Shown here: one piece after another, positions 6,221 to 7,329 of the stretch | Layout of the letters: each line of letters opens with the position of its first letter | Position numbering within the stretch: position 1 is the stretch's first letter | Source: an uncultured Parachlamydiaceae bacterium | Lineage (GTDB): Bacteria; Chlamydiota; Chlamydiia; Chlamydiales; Parachlamydiaceae | DNA length: 64,000 bases | Direction of reading: 5' to 3' | NCBI GenBank assembly: GCA_963742415.1 | Contig: CAVULX010000004.1 | Coordinates: forward strand, 896,001-960,000 | Translations under genes and position numbers: made by a program | Notes under the pieces: model-generated | What the model saw: only the letters and a program-made list of their open reading frames with translations | Database searches by the model: none | Told to the model about the DNA's origin: nothing

Positions 6221-7324
6221 AATTTTAAAGATCAAGGAACAGGATATGCAAGATCGCAAGCGGCATGATAGGCAAGATAATAAAGGATTATATACAGAAT
6301 TAACTGAAACTATTTTAGGGATTTGTTTTGATACAATGAATGAACTTGGTTCAGGTTTTCTTGAAACGGTTTATAAAAATGCACTGTTCGTTGCCATAAA
6401 AGAAAAAGGTCTTAAAATCGAAGCTGAAAAAAGATTCGAAGTCTTTTTTAAAGGAAAAAAAATCGGCTTATATATTGCAGACCTTGTCGTCGAAAATGCT
6501 GTAATCATCGAATTAAAATGTTGTGAATCATTGCTTGGCGAACATCAAGCTCAATTAATTAATTATCTTAAAGCATCCGGTGTTTTTGTTGGCTTGCTGG
6601 TCAATTTTGGAAAAAGAAAAATAGAATACAAACGCCTTCATCATCCTGATTATCCTGCCGCTTGCGATCCTACATATCCTGTTCACTGATGTTTAAAAAT
6701 TATCGGGCTTATCCAAGGAACAGGATATGCAGGATCGCAAGCGGCAGGATAGGCAAGATAATAAAGGATTATATACAGAACTAACTGAAACTATTTTGGG
6801 ATTTGTTTTGATGAACTTGGTTTAGGTTTGCTTGAAATGCCTTCACCATCCTGCTTATCCTGCCGCTTGCGATCCTACATATTCTGTTCACTGATGTTTA
6901 AAAATTATCGGGCTTATCCAAGGAACAGGATATGCAGGATCGCAAGCGGCAGGATAGGCAGGATAAAAAACGATCATATACAGAACTAACTGAAACTATT
7001 TTGGGATTTGTTTTGATGAACTTGGTTTAGGTTTGCTTGAAATGCCTTCACCATCCTGCTTATCCTGCCGCTTGCGATCCTACATATCCTGTTCACTGAT
7101 GTTTAAAAATTATCGGGCTTATCCAAGGAACAGGATATGCAGGATCGCAAGCGGCAGGATAGGCAAGATAATAAAGGATTATATACAGAACTAACTGAAA
7201 CTATTTTGGGATTTGTTTTGATGAACTTGGTTCAGATTTGCTTGAAATGCCTTCACCATCCTGCTTATCCTGCCGCTTGCGATCCTGCATATCCTGTTCC
7301 TTGATATTTAAAAATTTATCGGGC

Positions 7325-7329
<5 letters not shown>
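6221..7329 (+). mobile_element. inverted-repeat-bounded GxxExxY element plus three tandem 205-bp internally deleted copies
   Basis: caaggaacaggatatgc starts at 6233, 6714, 6919 and 7124; each unit ends in the reverse complement atcctgccgcttgcgatcct(a/g)catat(c/t)ctgttc; the mobility label is inferred. Confidence 0.75.
6246..6689 (+). CDS. GxxExxY protein (PD-(D/E)XK nuclease-like, PDDEXK_3)
   Basis: ELGSGFLETVY (GxxExxY), ADLVVENAVIIELK, HQAQLINYLKA, GLLVNFG. Confidence 0.95.
   Translation: MQDRKRHDRQDNKGLYTELTETILGICFDTMNELGSGFLETVYKNALFVAIKEKGLKIEAEKRFEVFFKGKKIGLYIADLVVENAVIIELKCCESLLGEHQAQLINYLKASGVFVGLLVNFGKRKIEYKRLHHPDYPAACDPTYPVH

Follow-up and report, generated by a model that had tools for sequence, protein, structure and literature searches.

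A GxxExxY nuclease gene between the hairpin arms of a dispersed repeat in a Parachlamydiaceae genome, with tandem deletion derivatives and a layout resembling REPIN/RAYT

How does the gene of a small putative nuclease come to be written partly into the arms of an inverted repeat, and how did three shortened copies of the same unit come to follow it in tandem? The locus that raises this question lies at positions 6,221 to 7,329 of a 64,000-nucleotide (nt) stretch of DNA from an uncultured Parachlamydiaceae bacterium (C4:896001-960000), here called the window; positions without a contig name refer to it. The source genome comprises 2.69 Mb in four contigs and is 84% complete. A 481-bp unit holds a gene of the GxxExxY family between two complementary arms, and this unit is the only gene-bearing copy in the genome of a hairpin-armed GxxExxY cassette. 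On balance we favour the explanation that gene and arms form a nuclease-plus-repeat system, built like that of REPIN/RAYT (doublets of repetitive extragenic palindromes, REP, with a REP-associated tyrosine transposase) but with a different enzyme. The features of the locus are as follows.

6233..6713 (+ strand): full 481-bp unit, made up of left arm, GxxExxY gene, right arm and spacer
6246..6689 (+ strand): GxxExxY nuclease gene, 147 codons; the domain takes up amino acids 18-131 and both terminal tails are arm-encoded
6223..6286: left arm, CAGGAT-type words with a CGC-AA-GCG mini palindrome between them; contains the likely ribosome-binding site and the ATG (profile match 6237-6282)
6635..6698: right arm of the full unit, with the last codons and the TGA within it
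6364..6368 (+ strand): AAACG, left microhomology copy at the 266-bp deletion
6630..6634 (+ strand): AAACG, right microhomology copy at the 266-bp deletion
6714..6918 (+ strand): mini unit 1, arms 6714-6767 and 6840-6889
6919..7123 (+ strand): mini unit 2, arms 6919-6964 and 7045-7094
7124..7329 (+ strand): mini unit 3, arms 7124-7177 and 7250-7313, the latter being the arm with which the outermost left arm pairs best
7316..7329 (+ strand): 14-nt spacer word, fourth and last copy; the other copies start at 6700, 6905 and 7110

The preliminary description of this DNA had placed here a 481-bp unit whose GxxExxY open reading frame (ORF) starts in the left arm and stops in the right one, followed by three 205-bp units, at 6714, 6919 and 7124, which lack 266, 9 and 1 bp, the longest gap lying between the AAACG microhomologies. 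Coordinates, inverted-repeat pairing, unit alignment and Tandem Repeats Finder bear all of this out. The left arm is complementary to 6635-6698 over 64 nt at 83%, and the outermost ends, also said to pair, give it a better partner still (6223-6286 with 7250-7313, 64 nt, 88%); the mini units' own arms pair over 42-54 nt at 86-98%. Tandem Repeats Finder reports 6630-7329 as an array of period 205 with 3.4 copies, 95% matches and a score of 1293. When the four units are aligned, the full unit has 1, 9 and 266 columns in which the minis are gapped (481-276=205), and over the 205 common columns the minis are 95.1-97.6% identical to one another and 93.2-94.6% identical to the full unit. In the internal units the left arm also begins 10-13 nt further in than in the full unit. 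The 276 missing bases preserve the reading frame only as a total; mini 3 has a 55-codon frame matching no family, and no such frame begins at the arm ATG of minis 1 and 2. A promoter scan gave no promoter-like site on the + strand upstream of the nuclease gene.

The arms are not confined to the locus. With a profile built from them we found 176 arm copies in the genome, namely 79 convergent pairs (four at the locus; 75 dispersed ones, which mostly measure about 156 nt) plus 18 arms that lack a partner, against a single GxxExxY gene (one TIGR04256 match). Apart from one 78-codon frame this is the only gene found between such arms. All pairs but one (78/79, the four locus units included) lie outside the ORFs of a crude map that covers 85-89% of the DNA. 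The dispersed elements are small, have terminal inverted repeats and no coding capacity, and most of their interiors are unrelated to the GxxExxY gene. No target-site duplications were detected: 66 of the 75 dispersed elements have no direct repeat of at least 2 nt at their ends, the same as shuffled partners, where the ends were set by the reach of the inverted repeat and may be imprecise. A DDE parent with the same ends was not found, and the unpaired arms form no long-range convergent pair. The earlier idea of an autonomous element with derivatives of the MITE (miniature inverted-repeat transposable element) or REPIN kind hence survives in part: the arms are dispersed genome-wide as gene-less elements, but with no target-site duplication seen at 75 elements they do not qualify as MITEs in the strict sense, and a REPIN-like element fits better.

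The linkage of gene and arms extends across genera and phyla. Arms were scored when an inverted repeat of at least 30 bits bracketed the domain, and displaced windows served as controls. Among 41 related genomes 27 have a TIGR04256 match; we took the best one or two loci of each, dropped three for short flanks and kept 23, of which 15 have arms, compared with 0/41 control windows displaced by 1.1 kb. Species-representative genomes supplied 80 loci of the query's own subfamily, spanning Chlamydiota, Desulfobacterota, Chloroflexota, Acidobacteriota, Verrucomicrobiota, Proteobacteria and others; arms are present at 52 of the 69 with full flanks and at none of 125 controls. Both sets together give 67/92 loci against 0/166, and the arm-bounded layout expected for other genomes is thus found there. 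The arm words match the protein subfamily, in word classes that were drawn after the data had been seen: in the query subfamily at least two GAT-type words (CAGGAT, CACGGAT and the like) occur in 42 of the 52 armed loci and CRCARAG in none, with 10 unclassified, and in the distant subfamily of the relatives CRCARAG words occur in 8/12 and GAT-type words in 0. Further, of the 27 genomes that have GxxExxY, 18 contain phased arrays (three word types were counted), as does 1 of the 14 others. The exact arm of the locus is found in 10/24 genomes of the family, with 68 copies in G004, 34 in G014 and 28 in G009; in G004 the same arms bracket its GxxExxY gene in a different neighbourhood, after a candidate MreB-like ORF.

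Each arm is built of CAGGAT-type words spaced 9, 15 and 9 nt, with a small palindrome inside the 15-nt gap. Across 167 readable arms the palindrome stem is CGT/ACG in 86, CGC/GCG in 27 and a longer GC stem with a 3-nt loop in about 25. The longer stems include TGCC/GGCA and CGCCC/GGGCG variants in which compensatory changes retain the pairing; uncompensated forms are few (7 + 2 + 1 plus some singletons). Related chlamydial loci have other stems at the same position (CAC/GTG, CCCGC/GCGGG and one 7-bp stem). The two arms of one element resemble each other more than they resemble those of other elements, with a median divergence of 2 of 44 positions within one element versus 7 between elements. 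After four segmental duplicates had been taken from the 58 elements with a gap-free arm alignment, the remaining 54 contained nine variants seen exactly twice, four of them mirrored across both arms of one element, and 17 variants seen once. Either the pairing is under selection or one arm is corrected against the other.

The gene product was expected to belong to a PD-(D/E)XK-fold family, and profile matches, invariant residues and structural matches of a model agree on this. PF13366 (PDDEXK_3) is the sole family matched, at 130 bits over amino acids 18-130 (cut-off 22, E 7.4e-38), and TIGR04256 is matched at 129.8 bits (cut-off 35, E 5.8e-38). In 35 aligned sequences with identities down to 29%, G37, E40, Y43, D79, E89 and K91 are invariant; on the basis of the fold we take E40, D79, E89 and K91 to be the catalytic residues. 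The predicted structure (mean predicted local distance difference test score 88.8) is a minimal restriction-endonuclease-like fold. Every one of its best structural matches is a PD-(D/E)XK nuclease, though the scores are modest: 3ijm (Z 8.3), Cas4 SSO0001 (4ic1; Z 8.2, Foldseek E 3.8e-5), R.SwaI (Z 8.2) and Hjc (Z 6.5). Judged from this model the PD-(D/E)XK fold is clear and the subtype is not. A sequence search of the Protein Data Bank gave no match below E 0.4, and a homodimer prediction scored 0.00 against a mark of 0.42. At a threshold of E 1e-10 this protein has 3,629 relatives, the closest being labelled Parachlamydiaceae, Waddliaceae or Chlamydiae. The arm-encoded tails (MQDRKRQD... and ...HHPD..AACD..YPV) are common to the close homologues because the arms recur.

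How the minis arose can be read in part from the right flank. The neighbouring genes are the following.

7325..7768 (- strand): atpC (ATP synthase epsilon), right neighbour, its 3' end included in the repeat unit
5916..6134 (- strand): YgaP-like membrane protein gene, left neighbour, divergent from the nuclease gene

In its last copy the 14-nt spacer word takes in the stop codon of atpC (7325-7327) and extends over 2 nt of the sense codon before it. The word occurs five times in the genome, four times at the locus and once directly left of a dispersed mini. Since a flank word that reaches the atpC stop is part of each unit, what was repeated comprises the cassette and its flank; local tandem duplication, and not three insertions, gave rise to the array. 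The proposal that the minis were independent MITE insertions does not agree with these 14 nt of flank in every unit, which in the last copy overlap the atpC stop. That the minis are internal-deletion derivatives of the full unit, on the other hand, is borne out by the unit alignment and by the same deletion junction at a second locus: a dispersed 133-nt copy at C4:715846-715978, 186 kb away, has the identical 266-bp junction. At the positions changed in the minis it keeps 27/27 nt of the full gene's version, and a further 36 nt are absent. From the spacer word together with these full-gene positions it follows that the dispersed mini descends from an early array unit. Deletion derivatives thus arise, amplify locally and can turn up elsewhere.

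Comparable arrays exist at other GxxExxY loci. Tandem Repeats Finder, run on 110 such loci, gave 15 rows with a period of at least 90 in 11 loci, and all but one row (L184) abut the gene; arrays abutting the gene are thereby known at 10 other loci, with gene remnants in two, G016 and G018. The former has a period of 250, 2.7 copies and CACAAAG-type arms, the latter a period of 206 and 2.3 copies. The units of both consist of the two arm regions and degraded pieces of the gene, and hence reproduce the layout of a full gene plus minis with unrelated arms. The arrays of L137, L152, L155, L168 and L186 are made of gene-less hairpin units. The two arrays of G035, with periods of 352 and 343, each repeat an arm-bounded 3' fragment of the gene three times.

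The site itself is not shared. None of the 80 loci has atpC, atpD, a YgaP-like gene or a peroxidase gene beside GxxExxY. No empty site was found: 13 relatives have atpD-atpC, and none of them has GxxExxY or a ygaP-like gene in the 0.1-1.5 kb downstream. The gene order beside atpC differs in all 13 and the best atpC match is 41% identical, hence a true empty site is not available among them.

Two further members of the arm family lie in the window.

36618..36771: gene-less element, arms as at the locus
49761..49951: gene-less element, arms as at the locus, CGC-AA-GCG subfamily

A solo arm is also seen in the window at about 63234. Elsewhere, a 525-nt CAGGAT-armed element at C4:41395-41919 holds the 78-codon open frame, with a hydrophobic tail, in place of the nuclease gene. 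Nested hairpins were noted at C3:634214-634506, C4:328002-328311 and C4:1105009-1105567, where CACAGAG- or CGCAGAG-type hairpins, or the repeat associated with the Y1 transposase gene described below, are centred in CAGGAT-armed elements. Many elements of the main subfamily (e.g. C3:409420, C3:561021 and C4:578333) are flanked on either side by directly oriented words like CTCCTAAGTAACTAG, which contain stops in all three frames and could mark either a longer composite element or a preferred target.

In the explanation that we favour the nuclease would bind the phased words of its own arms and cut the arms when these are folded or form a cruciform, and new copies would come about through repair or replication after cutting. 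Further, we speculate that the small arm palindrome would turn the folded element into a four-way junction, a plausible substrate for the PD-(D/E)XK fold. At the locus, the cassette with its flank reaching 2 nt into atpC was duplicated in tandem; one duplicate would then have shed 276 bp of gene sequence, including the 266 bp that lie between the AAACG direct repeats, as slippage predicts. The shrunken unit would have been amplified and one descendant copied to the site 186 kb off, either through movement of the element or through conversion of a hairpin already resident there via arm homology. More tentatively, and with more doubt than belief, we extend this to the family as a whole: GxxExxY proteins may be the enzymes behind a new class of selfish hairpin elements that spans phyla, a PD-(D/E)XK counterpart of RAYT/REPIN in which each protein subfamily would read its own phased arm words. 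In this view the palindrome of the chlamydial arms would yield a four-way junction cut by the nuclease, and the gene-less copies, nested hairpins and mini arrays would be by-products of cutting and repair.

Several observations weigh against the nuclease as the driver of these repeats. Nuclease activity or DNA binding of a GxxExxY protein is not described in the literature searched, and in the passages of the survey PMC3424549 that concern PF13366 the function is entered as 'Unknown'. The nuclease gene's own arms belong to a minority subfamily (27/167 arms, with another stem in 86), and only 1/75 dispersed elements has a gene-derived interior. The spacer word of the array stands on the left of the dispersed mini, so that copying from arm to arm does not account for it. 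The co-occurrence of arrays and gene (18/27 vs 1/14) comes from related genomes, which are non-independent samples, and G015 (79% complete), the single exception among the 14, has arrays but no GxxExxY gene. In the present genome, 32 triple arrays of the CRCAGAG type, the arm type of other GxxExxY subfamilies, were counted genome-wide (0 in the backwards control; one example lies in the window at about 55,887-55,940), and these too occur without a matching GxxExxY gene in the assembly. Some 30 dispersed copies of the G035 minis (98-100% identity) were considered as proof of mini mobility and rejected, since their flanks are conserved over hundreds of bases and encode DDE_Tnp_1; these minis ride in a DDE insertion sequence (e.g. 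L093:1501-1821 and L093:1806-2336) and spread by hitch-hiking. One soil read run, which contains 5% of the sampled words, matches only 134 nt at 5900-6033 and a 33-nt piece of arm, too little to count copies; the same search listed no RNA run. As neither target-site duplications nor an empty site, a close relative or supporting reads were found, the case for mobility comes from distribution alone.

Several of the same observations would also be accounted for if the arms were the target and not the ends of the element. A homing-endonuclease-like gene would then cut cognate gene-less hairpins and be copied into their centres by arm-homology repair, the gene-less copies being empty alleles renewed by gene loss. 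Such a course agrees with a gene that always stands exactly between arms, with arm word types that follow the protein subfamily, with elements nested in one another's centres and with arms that remain alike within one element; the minis would be cases of gene loss with the arms intact, and the dispersed mini could be a converted resident hairpin. We nevertheless regard homing as unlikely. One gene versus 75 gene-less pairs is unlike efficient homing, the spread of gene-less hairpins to new sites is left unexplained, and no polymorphic site was seen.

It seems improbable that the arms are ordinary REP-like repeats at gene ends, kept or tolerated by the host as transcript stabilisers or terminators, with the nuclease gene as a passenger that does not act on them. 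The positions of the elements would suit such a role, as the 78 extragenic ones of the 79 favour gene 3' ends (33 lie between convergent, 37 between co-directional and 8 between divergent genes), and so would array families that lack a matching gene, i.e. the CRCAGAG type here and the arrays of G015. A passenger would, however, not be expected between arms in 67/92 loci vs 0/166 controls, nor should the arm word type then follow the protein subfamily or the arrays be nearly confined to gene-bearing genomes; moreover, a terminator scan gave no terminator-like site in 6000-7500.

Less probable still is a system at the level of RNA, in which RNase III would cut the paired arms, the message would be released or silenced, and the gene-less copies would be processing sites. 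Loops of 2-3 nt are tight for RNA, and the mini palindrome has loops of this size, which speaks against such a role. If an RNA stem were selected, arm mismatches on the sense strand should favour wobble pairs; in 34 elements G-T was counted 25 times and A-C 31 times, and with no excess of G-T there is no sign of such selection. The element also lies outside rRNA, and its dispersal would be unexplained. What speaks for processing at the RNA level is that Rfam returns matches only to microRNA precursors, all below threshold, as generic long hairpins would, and that the Coxiella intervening sequence, in passages of PMC4990558, likewise encloses an ORF between complementary ends.

We give very little credence to the idea that it is the Y1 transposase (RAYT/IS200-type) of this genome that moves the CAGGAT-armed elements, with the GxxExxY gene as cargo. 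The genome does have one Y1_Tnp (PF01797) gene, at C4:1304441-1304755, and Y1_Tnp is common among the relatives (28/41 genomes). This gene, however, stands between its own 93-nt inverted repeats (92%), which are GC-rich, unrelated to the CAGGAT arms and matched at 77 dispersed places in the genome, mostly as doublets; tandem arrays of this repeat with a period of about 85 bp occur at C3:244009-244538 and C4:172890-173421. Gene and repeat look like a classical REPIN/RAYT-type system in a chlamydia. Phased arrays follow GxxExxY (18/27 vs 1/14) better than they follow Y1_Tnp (16/28 genomes with it vs 3/13 without); arrays occur without a Y1_Tnp match in G017 and G021, and Y1_Tnp occurs without either arrays or GxxExxY in G010, G023, G027 and G039. 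A REPIN/RAYT-type system and the GxxExxY system, alike in overall layout, are thus co-resident in one genome. Finally, that the assembler inflated a single mini into three units is hardly credible even though no reads cover the array, since 5-10 of 205 positions vary between the units, the last of which has a distinct right end, and comparable arrays are present in other assemblies.

How the proposed nuclease-plus-repeat system stands to known ones can now be stated. REPIN/RAYT systems combine REP doublets with a single-copy Y1 HUH transposase, according to passages of PMC3116915 and PMC3337134. Like them, the present system has one copy of an enzyme gene, set between inverted copies of a short repeat that is dispersed in the genome; extragenic inverted doublets number in the tens, tandem clusters occur, and target-site duplications are absent. 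It differs in that the enzyme is a 115-residue PD-(D/E)XK domain and not an HUH Y1 transposase (PF01797), in that the arms are phased 8-10-nt words with an inserted mini palindrome and not one REP palindrome, and in that the arms encode part of the ORF. MITEs derived from DDE insertion sequences, e.g. the Correia elements, are likewise short and non-coding, with terminal inverted repeats and many copies, and the minis resemble them as internal-deletion derivatives; unlike them, the elements here have no target-site duplication and no DDE parent that could be found, and most gene-less interiors are unrelated to the gene.

PD-(D/E)XK nucleases of mobile DNA include TnsA of Tn7, the PD-(D/E)XK homing endonucleases and the Rpn/YhgA-like 'transposase_31'. 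They share the fold and the catalytic motif with the GxxExxY protein and provide a precedent for cutting element ends or targets, but they are larger or have a DDE partner and show no relation to it in sequence, and the structural matches are generic (Z about 8). We know of no mobile-DNA PD-(D/E)XK nuclease that has been described with phased-word hairpin arms. PDDEXK_2 is listed as 'putative transposase' in a passage of PMC3424549.

The intervening sequence in the Coxiella 23S rRNA gene, with its S23p/PF05635 ORF, is described as a selfish element in passages of PMC4990558. It has in common with the present unit a small ORF of unknown function between complementary ends; the present locus lies between a ygaP-like gene and atpC and not in rRNA, and its ORF belongs to PF13366. 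The only PF05635-like gene of the genome, a 211-codon ORF at C4:30081-30716 (- strand) with a marginal 33.5 bits, was considered as an arm-bounded counterpart and rejected, as it has no arms.

Each known family hence fails on a defining feature: REPIN/RAYT on the enzyme, MITEs on the target-site duplication and the parent, and the rRNA intervening sequences on location and protein. A paper describing a class of GxxExxY genes with hairpin arms was not found in the literature searched, which did not extend to subscription journals. The novelty is the class and not this instance, which offers the clearest derivation series together with the co-resident Y1 system. The locus shows the whole series in one place, from full unit through deletion derivative and tandem array to dispersed copy, and sets one gene against about 75 gene-less pairs with a classical Y1/REPIN-type system as a built-in comparison. 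Elements of this kind also break metagenome assemblies, many close homologues of the protein being found on contigs of about 1 kb. If the nuclease acts on its own arms, this would give a function to the large PF13366/TIGR04256 family, would account for a common class of hairpin repeats found between genes in many phyla, and would add one more enzyme class to the short list of those driving the spread of bacterial repeats.

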